This document shows, one piece after another, positions 13,985-18,130 of a DNA stretch of 57,681 nucleotides. Positions within the stretch are counted from its first letter, which is position 1; every line of letters begins with the position of its first letter. The notes under the pieces were generated by a model. That model saw only the letters and a program-made list of their open reading frames with translations, ran no database searches and was not told where the DNA came from. The stretch is from contig JAUNNO010000001.1 of the NCBI GenBank assembly GCA_030531425.1, positions 1 through 57,681 of the forward strand. The letters run 5' to 3'. The position numbers and the translations under genes are program-made. Source of the stretch: a bacterium (lineage in GTDB: Bacteria; Bacillota_I; Bacilli_A; RF39; UBA660).

Positions 13985-14132
13985 AATAGATTTAAAAATT
14001 TGTAAAAAATATAATAAAATTAAATTAATTTACATATAAATTTTACTATTATACAATGTATCCAATACCTTTTACTTTGGATGAATATATCTACTGTTTT
14101 TATAAATTATTACAAAACAGTTAGTACATCAA
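13985..14132 (-). repeat. ComEC/Rec2-type 3' gene-tail remnant, copy 0 (most decayed)
   Basis: Aligns by eye with copies 2 and 3 (..KNSRYIHPK*KVLDTLYNSKIYM*..). It ends with CAGTTAGTACATCAA at 14118-14132. Confidence 0.55.
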
Positions 14133-14504
14133 TATACTTATTTTTTTAAAATACTTGTCATTAAATCTTATAATTAGAATATTTTCTAACGAAAAAATTC
14201 TATAATCTCCATTTTGAACAATTAAATAGCAAGCATATCTAGAAAGTTTATAATCTTTTATCTTTCTAATTCCACCTTTGCCATGTTTTATCAATTTCCC
14301 GACCTCGGGAAAATGGTCTTCAACGTTATAGCCACTTTTTTCACATGCAACTTTTGCATTATTTATAGCATTAGAGAATCTTTCCCACTTACTATGCTCA
14401 AGTAAAGGCATTAATTCTCTTGCCAGCCAATAATCATTACCATTCTCATCTATATGTTTTATATTTTCAAATATCTTCTCTGTATATTCTTTTATTTCAT
14501 TCAT
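14121..14504 (-). CDS. DinD (DNA-damage-inducible protein D) family N-terminal fragment, probably a remnant
   Basis: MNEIKEY..WLARELMPLL..AKVACEKSGYNVEDHF..YKLSRYACYLIVQNGD matches the first ~100 aa of E. coli DinD. It then diverges and stops inside the 15-bp repeat. The RBS is degraded (AATAAG). The ORF-track start at 14588 runs through tail copy 1. Confidence 0.7.
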   Translation of the reverse strand: MNEIKEYTEKIFENIKHIDENGNDYWLARELMPLLEHSKWERFSNAINNAKVACEKSGYNVEDHFPEVGKLIKHGKGGIRKIKDYKLSRYACYLIVQNGDYRIFSLENILIIRFNDKYFKKISILMY

Positions 14505-14518
14505 TTTAATTCTTATTT

Positions 14519-14575
14519 CTATGGTGAACATATCTATTATTTTTACCAACCCATACGGGTCAGTTAGTACATCAA
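14519..14575 (-). repeat. ComEC/Rec2-type 3' gene-tail remnant, copy 1 (internally deleted)
   Basis: TTGATGTACTAACTG..GTTGGTAAAAATAATAGATATG is joined directly to ..TCACCATAG. The middle part present in copies 2 and 3 is missing. Confidence 0.6.
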
Positions 14576-14601
14576 ATAAAAACTGCATATATAATGCAGT
14601 T
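14574..14601 (-). terminator. Rho-independent terminator after the GNAT gene
   Basis: Minus strand AACTGCAT-TATAT-ATGCAGTT followed by TTTATTT. The hairpin overlaps the TAA stop. Confidence 0.5.
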
Positions 14602-15064
14602 AAATATTAGTTTTTCTCATTTTAAAACTTAAAACTTCAAAGCCAAGTGATTTATATAAATTTAAGGCTGTTTCATTTTTTGACATTACATTTATATCTA
14701 TAAAACTAATGTCTTTTTCTTTAATTATACTTAAACCTTCAGTTATTAAAGATTTTGCTATACCTTTATTGCGATATTCTTCTTCTACGTATAGTCCATC
14801 AATTAAATATCCAAAAGCATCTTCATCCTTTACAAATTTAAAATAAACATACCCAACTATTTCTTTGTTTTCTTTGTAACCTAACAAAATATTTTGTTCA
14901 TCTTTAACTATATTCTTAAAATAATCTTTAACAATAAAGTTTTCATTTATAAAAACATTATAGTTTTTTTCATCTTGAATTAATTTAGTTAATAATGCAT
15001 CACAATAATTAGCATTTGTTTCATCTAAAATTCTAATTAACATATTATCACATCCTATATTCAT
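14600..15064 (-). CDS. GNAT family N-acetyltransferase
   Basis: 154 aa with acetyl-CoA motif VEEEYRNKGIAKSLI. The start is more likely MLIRILDE at 15043, which is preceded by AGGA. Confidence 0.8.
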   Translation of the reverse strand: MNIGCDNMLIRILDETNANYCDALLTKLIQDEKNYNVFINENFIVKDYFKNIVKDEQNILLGYKENKEIVGYVYFKFVKDEDAFGYLIDGLYVEEEYRNKGIAKSLITEGLSIIKEKDISFIDINVMSKNETALNLYKSLGFEVLSFKMRKTNI

Positions 15065-15068
15065 TATA

Positions 15069-15968
15069 TCACACTAATTCATATTCTCTTGAAATAATTC
15101 TATCATCAGAACAATATTGAATAACATACTGGTTATTCTTTTTACAAATTATTATACCAGCAGTTTTATTATCATCAATATTCTTTACTTCATTATCGAT
15201 ATAATTCATATAATTTTGAATTTGTCCAGTATGACTAGAATTTAACTCATTAACTTTTAGTTCAATTACTACAAAACACTTATATTTGAAATTATAAAAT
15301 AATAAATCAATATAATTGTATCTATCACCCACTTTAATTTTATATTCATTATCTATAAAACTAAACCCTGTCCCTAATTCTTTCATAAATGATGTGATAT
15401 TTTCAAGTATTAATTTTTGCAATAATTTTTCTGATATATTTTCATAATTATAACTATTTTTAATTAATATTGGATTTTTAACAAAATCTACAACATTATT
15501 TTCTTCTTTATTTATTAACTTTAATTTAGTTTCTTCATTTAATCTTTCATATTCATTTGCCTTAATTATACTTCTTAAACCACGAACATCGATATTATTA
15601 ATTTCACATTGATACACATAATACTTTATTTTGTTTATATCGTCTATTGATAACATCTCATACCAATGACTCCATGTTAATTTTCCCGACAATGTCGGGA
15701 CTTTTTGAATTATTATATAAAATTGTTTGATTTTATATAAAAGTGATACAGAATATCTTTTACCAAATTTGGTGATTAACCTATTCGAATACTCTTTAAT
15801 AATGCTTTTACCATATTTAGTATCAACACTACTTATTAATTCTCCAATTTCAAGATAGGTTTTCATTTTCTCTTTTGCTTTTGAATAATCTTTTACACTT
15901 TGATATATTTCATGATTTAATATTTTATTTTCAATTTGATTATATATTATTTCTGTTTCATTTTTCAT
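15069..15968 (-). CDS. DUF1016/YhcG-type PD-(D/E)xK nuclease family protein
   Basis: 299 aa with LTWSHWYEML.. and a C-terminal IDLLFYN..VVIELK nuclease core. It is a paralogue of ORF 16857..17882. Confidence 0.75.
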   Translation of the reverse strand: MKNETEIIYNQIENKILNHEIYQSVKDYSKAKEKMKTYLEIGELISSVDTKYGKSIIKEYSNRLITKFGKRYSVSLLYKIKQFYIIIQKVPTLSGKLTWSHWYEMLSIDDINKIKYYVYQCEINNIDVRGLRSIIKANEYERLNEETKLKLINKEENNVVDFVKNPILIKNSYNYENISEKLLQKLILENITSFMKELGTGFSFIDNEYKIKVGDRYNYIDLLFYNFKYKCFVVIELKVNELNSSHTGQIQNYMNYIDNEVKNIDDNKTAGIIICKKNNQYVIQYCSDDRIISREYELV

Positions 15969-15981
15969 TTCTTACTCCTTT

Positions 15982-16170
15982 CTATGGTGGACACGTCCTA
16001 ATTTTATATCCTTTTTTATTTAATTTAATCTCAATAGATCCATCTAAATCTGTTCTATAAATTTTACTATTTCTTAATGTTTCTAATACTTCATCTTTTG
16101 GATGCCCATATCTATTATTCTTACCAACACGTTTTGGATAGTTACTACATCAGCCGTAAATTCTTTTATT
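15982..16170 (-). repeat. ComEC/Rec2-type 3' gene-tail remnant, copy 2 (open frame)
   Basis: Translates to VGKNNRYGHPKDEVLETLRNSKIYRTDLDGSIEIKLNKKGYKIRTCPP then TAG. It is preceded by ..KEFTADVVT.. in another frame. There is no start codon and no upstream gene body. Confidence 0.7.
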
Positions 16171-16171
16171 T

Positions 16172-16200
16172 CAAAGAAAAAAGAACTAATCAATAGTTCT
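16172..16200 (-). terminator. Rho-independent terminator after the histidine phosphatase gene
   Basis: Minus strand AGAACTA-TTGAT-TAGTTCT followed by TTTTTTCTTT, located 4 nt after the stop. Confidence 0.6.
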
Positions 16201-16204
16201 CAAA

Positions 16205-16831
16205 TTAATTTATAATATCTATATCTATTATTTTATTATTTTCATAACGAATTCTATAAACTCCAGGACTTTTAGGTTTGTTCTCAACAATTAATTTATT
16301 ATTATATTTTACAGTTGTAATTCTACCATCAAATGAAAAGTCACAATTATTTTGTAAAAACGATAATAGCATTATTCCGTGAATTACTATTATAGATTTA
16401 TCAATATCCTTATTTAATAACTCCTTAATAAAATTATTTAGTCTATCATCCATTTCATTTAATGATTCACATTTATTATTTACTTTATAATTTTTATCAT
16501 CAAATGACCTTTTTGTGAAATCATCAGGTAACTCATTTAAATAATTGATTCCAAATTCTCTTTCATTAATTCTTGAATCTAATTTTATTTTTGTATTATT
16601 TGCTTCTGATAAATATTTAGCGGTTGCTATTGCTCTAAACGAATTACTTGAATATATTTCTTTTATTCCTTTTAACTCATTTATTTCTTGTAATTTTTCT
16701 GCTTTCTTTTCTCCTTCAACAGATAAAATCATATTTTTATTATACTCATTCCAATCAACACTTTGATAATCACTATAATTATCTATATCTATAAAAGGCC
16801 CTGAATGTCTAATCAAATATATTTCTTTCAT
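16205..16831 (-). CDS. histidine phosphatase superfamily (branch 1) protein
   Basis: 208 aa with N-terminal LIRHSG, SSNSFRAIATA, and a second His in VIHGIM. Confidence 0.7.
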   Translation of the reverse strand: MKEIYLIRHSGPFIDIDNYSDYQSVDWNEYNKNMILSVEGEKKAEKLQEINELKGIKEIYSSNSFRAIATAKYLSEANNTKIKLDSRINEREFGINYLNELPDDFTKRSFDDKNYKVNNKCESLNEMDDRLNNFIKELLNKDIDKSIIVIHGIMLLSFLQNNCDFSFDGRITTVKYNNKLIVENKPKSPGVYRIRYENNKIIDIDIIN

Positions 16832-16856
16832 GTTATCAACTCCTACCTCAATTATA

Positions 16857-17882
16857 TCACACTAACTCAAGATTTTTCTTTTCACTTTCAATTACATTGA
16901 TAAATTCTTCTTCAGTAGGAATAGTTAATCTAAATTCAGATGAGAATATAGTTTGATTATCTTCTGGTAATGTATATTTAACTATTGTTTCATTTTTATC
17001 AGTAGAAAGTAAGATACCAATTGTTTTATTTTCTTTATTATCCTTAATTTCTCTATCATAGTAATTTACATACATTTGCATTTGTCCAATATCTTTATGT
17101 GTAACTTTACCTATTTTTAAATCAATTATCACAAAACATTTAAGAATTCTATTATAAAATACTAAATCTGGATAATAGTGTTCTGTATCTAATGTTATTC
17201 TAACTTGATTACCAACATATGTAAAACCCTTACCTAATTCTAATAAGAATTCTTTTAAATGATTCAAAATATTCTTTTCTAAATCGGATTCTAAATAATT
17301 TGTATTTTCTTTAATATCTAAGAACTCAAGTACAAATGGATCTTTTATTATATCTTTTGGCTCACTTAACTTATGACCTACAGTTGATAATTCAAATACT
17401 TTATTTTTATCTTTAGATGCTAATAATCGTTCATATAACAAAGTAGTTCTTTGTCTTTGTAGTTCTCTTACATCCCAATTTGAATTAATACATTCATGCA
17501 TATAAAAATTTCTTTTATTAACATCATCTATTTTTATTAATTCTAAATAATGTGACCATGTCAATTGGGACAACAGTGTTGTCCTATTTGAATAACATAA
17601 ATAAAACTTTCTCATTCTTTTTATATTTCTGTTTGAAAAACCTTTACCAAATTCTAATGATAATTTATCAGATACACGTTCAATAAGATAATCTCCGTAT
17701 TTAGCTTTAGGGTTTCCTTCTTGCATATCTACAATCATCTTACCAATGTTCCAATATAAATTGATCATTTCGGTATTTACTGTTTTATATACTCTATTTC
17801 TACTTTCTTCAACTAATAATTTTATATCATTATATAAATTATCAACCTTAGTATTATCTATTATTATAATTTCTTGTTTCAT
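16857..17882 (-). CDS. DUF1016/YhcG-type PD-(D/E)xK nuclease family protein
   Basis: 341 aa with LTWSHYLELIKIDD.. and PDLVFYN..FVIIDLKIGK. This is the typical YhcG layout. Confidence 0.8.
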   Translation of the reverse strand: MKQEIIIIDNTKVDNLYNDIKLLVEESRNRVYKTVNTEMINLYWNIGKMIVDMQEGNPKAKYGDYLIERVSDKLSLEFGKGFSNRNIKRMRKFYLCYSNRTTLLSQLTWSHYLELIKIDDVNKRNFYMHECINSNWDVRELQRQRTTLLYERLLASKDKNKVFELSTVGHKLSEPKDIIKDPFVLEFLDIKENTNYLESDLEKNILNHLKEFLLELGKGFTYVGNQVRITLDTEHYYPDLVFYNRILKCFVIIDLKIGKVTHKDIGQMQMYVNYYDREIKDNKENKTIGILLSTDKNETIVKYTLPEDNQTIFSSEFRLTIPTEEEFINVIESEKKNLELV

Positions 17883-17895
17883 ATCATACTCCTTC

Positions 17896-18130
17896 CTATG
17901 GCGGGCACGATCTAATCTTATATCCTTTTTTATTTAATTCAATTTTAAAACATCAATCTAAATCTATCCTATAAATTTTACTATTTCTTAGTGTTTCCAG
18001 CACTTCACCTTTTGGATGACCATATCTATTATTTTTACCAACTCATATTATCTAATATATCTATTTCTTTAAAAAGTTCACTACATCATTTTTCACTTAA
18101 TTCTTATCTTCTAACTTTAGATAAATATTT
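17896..18130 (-). repeat. ComEC/Rec2-type 3' gene-tail remnant, copy 3 (one internal stop)
   Basis: Translates to VGKNNRYGHPKGEVLETLRNSKIYRIDLD*CFKIELNKKGYKIRSCPP then TAG. Further decayed ..LEDKN*VKNDVV.. lies upstream. By eye it matches copy 2 at roughly four of every five bases. Confidence 0.7.

Follow-up and report, generated by a model that had tools for sequence, protein, structure and literature searches.

Why should a stretch of chromosome without a comEC gene carry four copies of the end of that gene, three of which lead across the same kind of junction into three different genes? The stretch, called the window here at its full length of 57,681 nucleotides (nt; 57.7 kb), lies on contig JAUNNO010000001.1 of a bacterium of the RF39 lineage; its GC content is about 24%, and almost all of its genes lie on the minus strand. 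The copies, which we call tails, resemble the 3' part of comEC and stand with their cargo genes on the minus strand downstream of polC (22953-18295). Taken together, our comparisons favor, with a probability of roughly 0.55, the view that this array, its four modules in decay, is what is left of a comEC C-terminal displacement array in which homologous recombination is the most likely driver.

The tail array in the window

GxxNxYGHP..YRTD is the pattern of the C-terminal end of the ComEC metallo-beta-lactamase (MBL) domain, and an earlier note on this DNA had called the tails ComEC-type. This assignment holds. The stop-free translation of tail copy 2 (VGKNNRYGHPKDEVLETLRNSKIYRTDLDGSIEIKLNKKGYKIRTCPP*, 16128-15982) aligns to the C-terminus of solved ComEC (9vc6_A, residues 759-796 of 827, E = 0.004; a second chain, 30bt_A, residues 749-795 of 801), and its identity with the final 48 residues of intact ComEC is 92% in L057, a related gut metagenome-assembled genome, and 90% in L035 and L030 (L-numbers denote loci of relatives). 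A tblastn search of the window with the intact, 670-amino-acid (aa) ComEC of a relative matched at codons 618-670, in tail copy 3 with 57% identity. The profile match to ComEC or Lactamase_B models that the earlier note had looked toward did not materialize: no Pfam or NCBIfam family matched the 48-aa tail at E <= 0.01 / 1, because the piece is very short and lies at the edge of or beyond these models. Judged by the alignments, the window tails are what remains of the C-terminal end of ComEC. Among 5.8 billion proteins searched, 244 matched the tail, and all 120 of the 120 listed are stand-alone open reading frames (ORFs) of 45-84 aa, mostly on short contigs. Such ORFs on such contigs would be expected for a multi-copy remnant that breaks assemblies and were a first sign of one.

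The four tails stand in direct orientation on the minus strand at about 18087-17896 (copy 3), 16151-15982 (copy 2), 14573-14519 (copy 1) and 14130-13985 (copy 0), and reading of the sequence confirmed the graded decay that had been described for them. Copy 3 is a decayed comEC 3' remnant with VGKNN codons from 18042, one internal TGA and the stop TAG at 17898-17896; its boundary-like block GATGTAGTGAACT (18087-18075) is 1 base longer than the GATGTASTRACT block, which is found exactly at 14119-14130, 14562-14573 and 16140-16151, with 0.87 occurrences expected by chance. Copy 2 has the block GATGTAGTAACT at 16151-16140, an open frame of 48 codons (16128-15985) and the stop TAG at 15984-15982; it lacks a start codon, and remnants of KEF..NPK codons flank the block. 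An in-frame TGA just upstream (16152-16150) breaks the frame of copy 2, and thus the GATGTA block claimed for every copy is there (three exact, one variant), but not its reading as an in-frame 'DVVT'. In copy 1, the block GATGTACTAACT (14573-14562) is followed by VGKNNRY codons that are joined to the ..CACCATAG end through an internal deletion. Copy 0 has the block GATGTACTAACT at 14130-14119 and then a heavily decayed tail that falls into repeat families D2 and D4.

Three tail stops lead, through junctions as previously quoted, into different genes. Thirteen nt past the stop of copy 3, behind a GGAAGGAG ribosome-binding site (RBS), begins a gene for a DUF1016/YhcG PD-(D/E)xK nuclease of 341 aa (DUF341; 17882-16857, minus strand) with an intact PD..DLK motif. 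It is followed by the variable second gene of module 3, encoding a histidine phosphatase of 208 aa (16831-16205, minus strand; His_Phos_1 in Pfam, 2.3e-16). The phosphatase gene is preceded by the junction GTGTGATATAAT..GGAG..ATG, whose TGA is the stop of DUF341 (16859-16851). A terminator-like hairpin (16200-16175, minus strand; AGAACTA-ttgat-TAGTTCT plus T-run, read from the sequence) ends module 3, and its type recurs upstream of boundary blocks at other loci. Module 2 repeats this layout behind tail copy 2: a DUF1016/YhcG nuclease of 299 aa (DUF299; 15968-15069, minus strand) with an intact D..ELK motif, then a GNAT acetyltransferase (15064-14600, minus strand; Acetyltransf_1 in Pfam, 2.8e-16), whose likely start is the ATG at 15043, after a conserved TGATATAAT (15071-15063) and AGGA junction, and a hairpin terminator at 14601-14581 (minus strand, terminator scan). 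Both DUF1016 modules thus close with hairpins, as noted earlier, and the second-gene junction of the two modules forms repeat family D5 with 80% identity. Behind copy 1 lies a DinD (Bro-N) gene fragment (14504-14121, minus strand), of which residues 3-102 correspond to positions 4-103 of the 288-position DinD model and the remainder is lost. The 15-bp direct repeat reported around the DinD module, CAGTTAGTACATCAA, is present and terminates repeat family D4. Both nuclease genes, the GNAT gene and the phosphatase gene are intact; dinD is the truncated one.

Direct orientation and a similar module layout might suggest that one tail plus DUF1016 module was duplicated locally and then diverged, as DUF1016 tandem arrays arose by duplication elsewhere (L052), or that the assembly was expanded. 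What speaks against duplication is that, as the earlier note had seen by eye, the tails are more alike than the cargo. The tails are 79-86% identical in DNA: repeat family D1 (15905-16135 vs 17819-18049) shows 79% identity across 231 nt, and copies 2 and 3 show 86% over their coding parts of 147 nt, their translations matching at 41 of 49 positions (48 residues plus stop). The functional DUF1016 genes behind these dead tails encode proteins of only 34% identity, and their DNA is alignable over 244 nt only, at 68%. Moreover, the modules have their closest relatives in different genomes. In L030, the functional end of comEC and the DUF341 counterpart run colinear with module 3 (86.8% over 1241 nt), and the gene after the intact comEC, on a 313-kb contig, encodes a protein 89% identical to DUF341; the colinear partner of module 2 is the functional comEC end module of L057 (88.5%), where the corresponding protein is 89% identical to DUF299, and the next unit of L057 likewise consists of a short tail and dinD. 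An expansion by the assembler was not seen either: the repeats are diverged, hence there are no collapsed or expanded reads to expect, different genes follow them, and an independent Logan contig (L189) supports part of the array, with the polC end, DUF341 and the histidine phosphatase, before it breaks inside the next tail. In view of the identities, the separate closest relatives and L189, we rejected in-situ duplication and assembly artefact, to which we give next to no probability.

No comEC body was found in the 57.7-kb window, where tblastn with intact ComEC hit the two tails only, and no ORF of the window unites DUF4131, Competence channel and MBL in the manner of a functional comEC, which in relatives is a single ORF of 663-705 aa. 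Motif and phmmer searches of the window for tyrosine or serine recombinases, in any frame of at least 100 aa, were negative as well, so the earlier statement that neither a comEC body nor an integrase lies nearby stands. There are no tRNA genes in the window and no Rfam matches in its 12.5-19 kb section.

Exchange and stacking at comEC in relatives

Relatives were sampled as contigs bearing short tail ORFs and as 57 species-level genome loci found with a DUF1016 protein query. They are uncultured, low-GC gut and rumen bacteria labelled Bacilli, Tenericutes or Mycoplasmatota, with further labels such as Clostridium sp. CAG:524 / CAG:433, Mycoplasma sp. CAG:472 and Coprobacillus sp. CAG:605. At most of the 57 loci, comEA and comEC (663-705 aa) are followed by a DUF1016 gene or dinD about 13 nt past the comEC stop, then by a variable gene and a terminator. 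Beyond this first unit there are 0-4 more 5'-truncated comEC copies, each with the stop/RBS junction and DUF1016 or DinD; L001 and L004, for example, read comEA-comEC-DUF1016 and then truncated comEC copies. The far flank is holA at many loci, as in Bacillus. This design was seen in more than 50 related genomes and in at least 120 metagenome stretches, the latter from a scan with TCACCA plus the HGDYDH codons as the query. No description of comEC-tail arrays was found in the searched literature.

The intact genes bear the marks of tail exchange. Pairwise comparison of 33 intact ComEC proteins gave median identities of 0.38 for the body and 0.66 for the tail (codons 482-670), with a Spearman rho of 0.24 between body and tail identity. 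L025 and L033 share 0.36 of the body and 0.90 of the tail; for L004 and L022 the values are 0.98 and 0.72. In DNA, the identity of L004 and L022 is 96-100% as far as the last base ahead of CATGG and drops to 68-88% after it, through DUF1016 and beyond. The distal displaced module of L004 was considered as the displaced L022 tail and ruled out, with 80% identity only; both lineages have undergone replacement after the split.

Stacking can be followed in three related genomes: comEC and its modules read body-Y in L042, body-X-Y in L040 and body-Z-X in L018, and the copy displaced in one genome is 96-97% identical to the functional copy of another. Compared as sequences, these orders provide direct evidence of serial front insertion at the gene and of displacement of the older tail. 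The earlier note had proposed that the position 3' of comEC is a variable-cargo hotspot with stacked alleles, and this is borne out: close relatives differ by entire modules, and no single arrangement is fixed. An open 189-codon frame persists in 50 of the 121 displaced tails (41%), which indicates that turnover is recent.

Several observations point toward homologous exchange between the copies. Tails that belong to one genome are homogenized, and in L018 and L040 the same boundary block and the same internal deletion recur in displaced tails from different modules. L081 and L102, which are otherwise near-identical, differ by a mismatch-dense patch of about 190 nt, from +14 to +200 after CATGG in the functional comEC tail; the patch of L102 is 94% identical to the displaced copy of L081 and 86.5% identical to the functional tail of L081. 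L028 and L029 differ by a patch at codons ~620-660 of the functional tail. Judging from these alignments, both patches are gene conversion between tail copies.

Conversion of this sort would also be expected if the displaced tails served as a silent-cassette reservoir, in the manner of pilE/pilS, that varies the surface-exposed nuclease domain of ComEC or switches the downstream nuclease. The conversion patches do connect functional and displaced tails, 41% of the displaced tails retain an open frame, and there are two discrete tail types among the ComEC ends (..IMFKIKNNKLKIETCSP and ..IEIKLNKxGYKIRTCPP). Yet the tails are conserved (0.66-0.84 identity) rather than hypervariable, the majority of the displaced copies are broken or internally deleted, each tail has its own cargo and terminator, as in allele stacking, and in the window array there is no expressed gene on which conversion could act. 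We consider a silent-cassette reservoir very unlikely.

Homologous displacement would proceed as follows. The exchangeable unit consists of a boundary block of about 28 nt, the last ~190 comEC codons (from HGDxDH to the stop), a first gene, a second gene and a terminator. The first gene, encoding DUF1016/YhcG or DinD, has its RBS overlapping the comEC stop, and an outward promoter-like TGATATAAT built on the stop of the first gene precedes one variable small gene. A new unit would join the resident comEC body at the HGDxDH point and provide a working 3' end, whereas the previous tail and its cargo would be pushed downstream, producing a column of 5'-truncated tails with the newest nearest the gene. 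Displaced tails would later acquire stops and shed internal segments. As the driver we infer RecA-type homologous recombination, for which the tails would be portable homology, and two routes are imaginable: Campbell-type integration of circles looped out between adjacent tails, or double crossover of imported linear tail-cargo-tail DNA in what are presumably competent bacteria. The boundary block would then be the end of the homology, inherited with the unit. The four tails of the window are all dead remnants, located after polC. The anatomy of the arrays is well supported, and tail replacement, the insertion of modules between close relatives and the conversion patches are documented by the sequence comparisons themselves.

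The location of the window array is a separate matter. The polC of the window shares 87-88% identity with its counterparts in L039, L043 and L051, where polC and a terminator precede a DUF1016 gene without a comEC piece; this gene comes at once in L039 and L043, and in L051 it lies about 3 kb on, past another gene. The window's lineage has its DUF1016 locus after polC and not after comEC, and it follows that the window array is in a different chromosomal place and is made of displaced-type tails only. Beyond tail copy 0 there is a prepilin-type gene (MERGFTLIELLAVIA.., 13625-12829, minus strand) that is broken by an in-frame TAA at 13580-13578, and a second pilin-like ORF (23932-23024) lies on the opposite side of polC. 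The broken prepilin gene and the missing comEC body hint that competence is perhaps decaying in this genome.

The boundary at the HGDxDH codons and the genes behind it

All 25 of 25 long truncated copies, identified by tblastn independently of any motif in more than 15 species, begin at ATTCG..TCACCA|CATGG. The ~28-nt block lies immediately 5' of the CATGG of the HGDxDH codons, and the sequence farther upstream is unrelated. It comes in discrete flavors, such as A (ATTCGTATGCATAAACGTATGTCACCA) and B (ATTCGACTTACTWWTTGACAATCACCA), all ending in TCACCA, where intact comEC reads ..GATTATTTAATTTTAACT|CATGG. With the scan and the earlier loci pooled, there are at least 129 unique instances of the boundary. 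The exchange point is therefore at the HGDxDH codons, about 190 codons upstream of the stop, and not at the stop codon. Shorter classes of tails (the '564' class and several '618-627' copies, L016 and L019) are long forms with internal deletions that have retained the block. The short tails of the window, L009, L057 and L026 form one shared short class that begins with TTGATGTACTAACTGAC; TTTTATTTGATGTACTAACTGAC of copy 1 matches the flavor-B block at 19 of 23 positions (z = 6.5), and the KEF..NPK flanks of copy 2 match comEC codons ~605-616 (z = 4.4). By these matches, the short tails may have arisen from the long form by internal deletion, or they may be a truncation class of their own near codon 605. 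In a search for the origin of the GATGTASTRACT block, the boundary blocks gave no consistent match inside comEC.

So sharp a boundary raises the question of whether a recombinase acting in trans moves site-specific cassettes here, with the block plus the CATGG of HGDxDH as an att-type site and with arrays that are tandem accretions resembling cis-mobilizable elements (CIMEs). Cassettes in circular form would integrate at this site and supply a new comEC end, in the way of islands that target tRNA/tmRNA genes or icd. The constant 5' boundary in the 25 long copies and in the pooled sites would follow directly. The block is more conserved than neighboring synonymous sites, occurs in discrete flavors and is retained despite large internal deletions, and L004 and L022 switch within 5 nt of CATGG although their tails are only about 77% identical. 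In addition, displaced copies read TCACCA-CA-TGGNGA around CATGG (-6 to +8), within the pattern TCNCCA-CA-TGGNGA, where intact genes read TTAACT-CA-TGGAGA; this symmetry comprises 5 positions only and was noticed post hoc, and covariation across the proposed symmetric core (positions -7/+9) was absent.

The recombinase is what such a mechanism lacks. Across ~180 loci, searched up to 4 kb from displaced tails with a tyrosine box-II motif and with phmmer seeded with a large serine recombinase and Xer proteins, and supplemented by one Pfam run over ten cargo-cluster representatives, no recombinase gene was found in or beside the arrays, save a XerC/D-type gene at six loci and an unrelated serine-recombinase element in L009. 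The XerC/D-type tyrosine recombinase gene, in L023, L024 (11588-12481), L030, L059, L080 and L081, lies 0.7-1.7 kb past the last module at five loci, a position that lends site-specific movement some support, and ~3.9 kb past DUF1016 in L023, a locus without displaced tails. The recombinase gene is confined to one sub-lineage, with tdk and ppdK next in line in at least four loci. This sole recombinase type near the arrays is, from its conserved context, probably a chromosomal neighbor. In L009 (6568-8223 and 8224-8710), an element that ends in a large serine recombinase of 551 aa is inserted in dinD; the 3' part of dinD begins directly past the recombinase stop, and just downstream stands a short comEC tail with 94% identity to window copy 2. 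A conserved hairpin of the attC kind at the cassette ends was ruled out, since the hairpins are diverse, ordinary terminators that go with the cargo. The internal deletion shared by tails of different modules fits homologous inheritance and not fresh events, and conversion patches with variable right ends speak for homologous recombination being active here. The earlier note had named two mechanisms, site-specific integration and homologous capture; both are possible, but we regard movement by a trans-acting recombinase as unlikely, though worth keeping in sight.

Homologous displacement has weaknesses of its own, and the boundary is the first. Pairwise identity within the block is 0.85-0.92, where the adjoining tail has a third-position minor-allele fraction of 0.28-0.32, figures that are partly biased by the way in which the sites were collected. 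The conservation of the block, its flavors and its symmetry look like a protein-binding site, for which pure homologous recombination would have no need; on an alternative reading, the block might be conserved because it has no resident partner for conversion, which would make the cassettes a young family. The tails of different species are ~70-80% identical in DNA and thus a poor substrate for RecA, the entry of new second genes between conserved flanks is not accounted for, and neither a circular form nor an empty site was observed. Finally, the window itself has no comEC, and its array might have reached the place after polC by recombination through a resident DUF1016 gene.

The genes behind the boundary follow a rule. 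Both window DUF1016 copies have DUF1016_N and YhcG_C above the Pfam cut-offs (DUF341: YhcG_C 2.8e-55, DUF1016_N 4.1e-46) and retain the catalytic D..(D/E)xK residues in the alignment; they are predicted PD-(D/E)xK nucleases. The window DinD fragment reaches 141.7 bits against NCBIfam PRK11525 (model positions 4-103 of 288), below the cut-off of 242 because it is truncated; the full-length DinD of L016 passes with 333 bits, and the full-length DinD after the short tail in L057 is 60% identical to the fragment. PADLOC assigns DUF1016 to PDC-S02 (5.6e-135 for DUF341) and full-length DinD to PDC-S13, both of them 'phage defence candidate' families and not proven systems, and has no match for the GNAT protein or the phosphatase. 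Of the cargo taken earlier for defence or stress islets, only the first-position genes match candidate defence families; the second-position genes do not.

In a metagenome set collected through the boundary motif, and hence free of DUF1016 bias, the full-length comEC stops are followed by DUF1016 in 12 cases, DinD in 8 and another gene in 6; behind displaced tails the counts are 35, 20 and 38. A DUF1016 or DinD gene thus comes directly after 20 of the 26 full-length comEC genes and 55 of the 93 displaced tails, which invites the idea of a nuclease-assisted, homing-like spread: DUF1016 (or DinD, through RecA) would cleave DNA or skew its repair at the HGDxDH region or the cassette boundaries, and mending from a template that bears a cassette would co-convert the comEC end and the nuclease gene. 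Homing targets are typically in the most conserved catalytic-motif codons, and the exchange point lies within such codons. The replacement tracts extend from it through the nuclease gene, and the catalytic PD..(D/E)xK residues are retained in both window copies. DUF1016 and DinD also occur beside genes with truncated copies in Type I restriction-modification (R-M) loci (PMC9881135).

A structure inside the DUF1016 genes might serve as the recognition site. At most loci, every DUF1016 gene has a G+C-rich hairpin with a stem of 7-10 bp and a 3-nt loop at the same codon position, just before the L-T/S-W-S-H codons (in DUF299 at 15700-15684, minus strand, TCCCGAC-ATT-GTCGGGA; in DUF341 at 17584-17568). 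The stem is perfect in 71 of 83 copies, which contain 30 different stems; the encoded residues vary freely while pairing is retained. In a covariation analysis of 32 sequences, 93% of the cells pair, compared to 56% in shuffles, and eight of eight pairs change on both sides. On the antisense strand, the hairpin is followed by CTTTTTC, like an intrinsic terminator.

On the other hand, the DUF1016 family has no known activity or target, and homing replaces but does not stack. The cassette alleles retain the same HGDxDH codons, which leaves self-immunity unaccounted for, about 40% of the displaced tails precede other or unrecognizable genes, and plain DUF1016 tandem arrays exist without comEC pieces. 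Structure prediction does not help: the AlphaFold model of DUF341 is too poor to add support (mean predicted local distance difference test score of 60, nuclease domain 30-65), its Foldseek comparison with the PDB gave nothing below E = 0.1, and no solved DUF1016 relative was found by sequence. We therefore judge homing-like spread improbable.

It is imaginable, if rather doubtful, that comEC is a docking site of recombinase-free cassettes whose first gene, DUF1016 or DinD, is the engine and is expressed with the competence operon. Just as doubtfully, the first gene might act on the boundary site or on the DUF1016 hairpin and so favor the copying of itself and of a new comEC end into incoming or resident DNA. 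If true, this would be a free-standing, homing-type element that is spread by natural transformation with small genes in tow, and the same logic might explain why DUF1016 and DinD stand beside truncated hsdS copies in Type I R-M loci. Head-to-tail DUF1016 arrays of 2-6 genes without comEC pieces are found in L052 (6318-10900), L050, L056 and L043, where each stop (..TTAGTATAG) is directly followed by AAAGAAGGA and the next ATG. In L001 (10265-10680), a DUF1016 copy has lost the sequence between two GAATATGAA repeats (..NEYE|RL.. / ..REYE|LV*) and retains 137 aa. As read from these repeats, the deletion joins the middle of DUF1016 to the conserved 3' junction and shows module shrinkage through microhomology.

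The second position is filled quite differently. The TGA stop of DUF1016 is the first part of TGATATAAT, which fits the extended -10 consensus, in 57 of 138 genes, and an AGGA RBS and a start codon follow. The ORFs after this junction belong to 58 families among 84, with conserved flanks, and 65 families were counted among the ORFs upstream of 92 boundaries. One Pfam run over ten representatives of cargo clusters returned miscellaneous enzymes, and the exact window GNAT protein is on no other contig. From this diversity behind conserved flanks, the second position is, in effect, a free-choice slot behind a built-in promoter-like element. A promoter scan of the AT-rich window found 55 candidates where 48.5 were expected, no excess over chance; the promoter-like nature of the TGATATAAT junction is consequently argued from its conservation and not from the scan. 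Viral contigs had neither a close DUF1016 relative nor the boundary motif, which makes a phage vehicle unlikely.

Comparison with known systems

If homologous displacement holds, C-terminal displacement would extend from polymorphic toxin genes to a conserved housekeeping gene, one that encodes the channel for transforming DNA. Gene exchange at this locus is widespread among uncultured Bacilli that abound in gut and rumen (at least 120 metagenome stretches, about 50 species-level genomes). The locus collects DUF1016/YhcG and DinD, both poorly understood and associated with defense, and, downstream of a built-in promoter-like element, small unknown genes by the dozen. Should incoming DNA or recombination prove to be what the first-position genes act on, competence, defense and selfish spread would be linked at one site. 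For annotation, the arrays account for hundreds of 45-84-aa 'ComEC' ORFs and for contig breaks at this locus.

The order of parts is that of Rhs and CdiA arrays. For Rhs arrays, the published model is homologous recombination with circular intermediates (PMC2935791; Jackson et al. 2009), and for CdiA, arrays of 'orphan' tip plus immunity modules have been described (PMC3150448; Poole et al. 2011). As in these systems, a full-length gene is followed by 5'-truncated 3' ends with their own partner genes, of which the window keeps the displaced part only; core and tip evolve separately, the break is at a conserved motif, newer tips are nearest the gene, and there is no recombinase. The host gene here, in contrast, is the housekeeping DNA-uptake channel comEC, with a conserved displaced part, whereas Rhs and CdiA are hypervariable polymorphic toxins. 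The partners are DUF1016 or DinD plus a free second gene and not immunity proteins, so the pairing of toxin and immunity that defines those arrays is missing, and a conserved non-coding block precedes each displaced comEC copy. It is the signs of homologous exchange, namely homogenized tails, the shared deletion and the conversion patches, that lead us to favor the Rhs-array model.

Islands in tRNA and tmRNA genes bring along a new end for the gene into which they integrate, as do phage 21 and e14 in icd, and Streptococcus CIMEs are tandem derivatives of such elements without a recombinase. The comEC arrays share with them direct repeats of the target 3' end that flank the units, a gene that stays intact and tandem accretion at a single site. 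They differ in that no array has an integrase, the units measure 1.5-2.5 kb, the duplicated segment of ~570 nt is unusually long, and conversion patches and shared deletions point to homologous exchange. With integrons they have in common a one-directional column of small, miscellaneous cassettes and a promoter that reads into a variable gene (the 58 families among 84 second-position genes); unlike integrons, they have no adjacent intI and no attC-like palindrome, their units repeat part of a chromosomal gene, and their first gene is fixed.

Two further comparisons concern transformable bacteria and comEC itself. Neisseria minimal mobile elements, like other defense hotspots flanked by core genes, are variable content between core genes that is exchanged by flanking homology without mobility genes, and the variable content between comEC and holA at many loci, in presumably transformable hosts and again without mobility genes, is similar. 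Here, however, the left homology arm, comEC, is copied with every unit, which leads to stacking, and units can move to a different downstream flank. Streptococcal elements that disrupt comEC, such as Tn1207.3/phi1207.3, are large and have their own recombinase. They likewise target comEC but interrupt the gene, whereas in the arrays described here the gene would be restored at each step.

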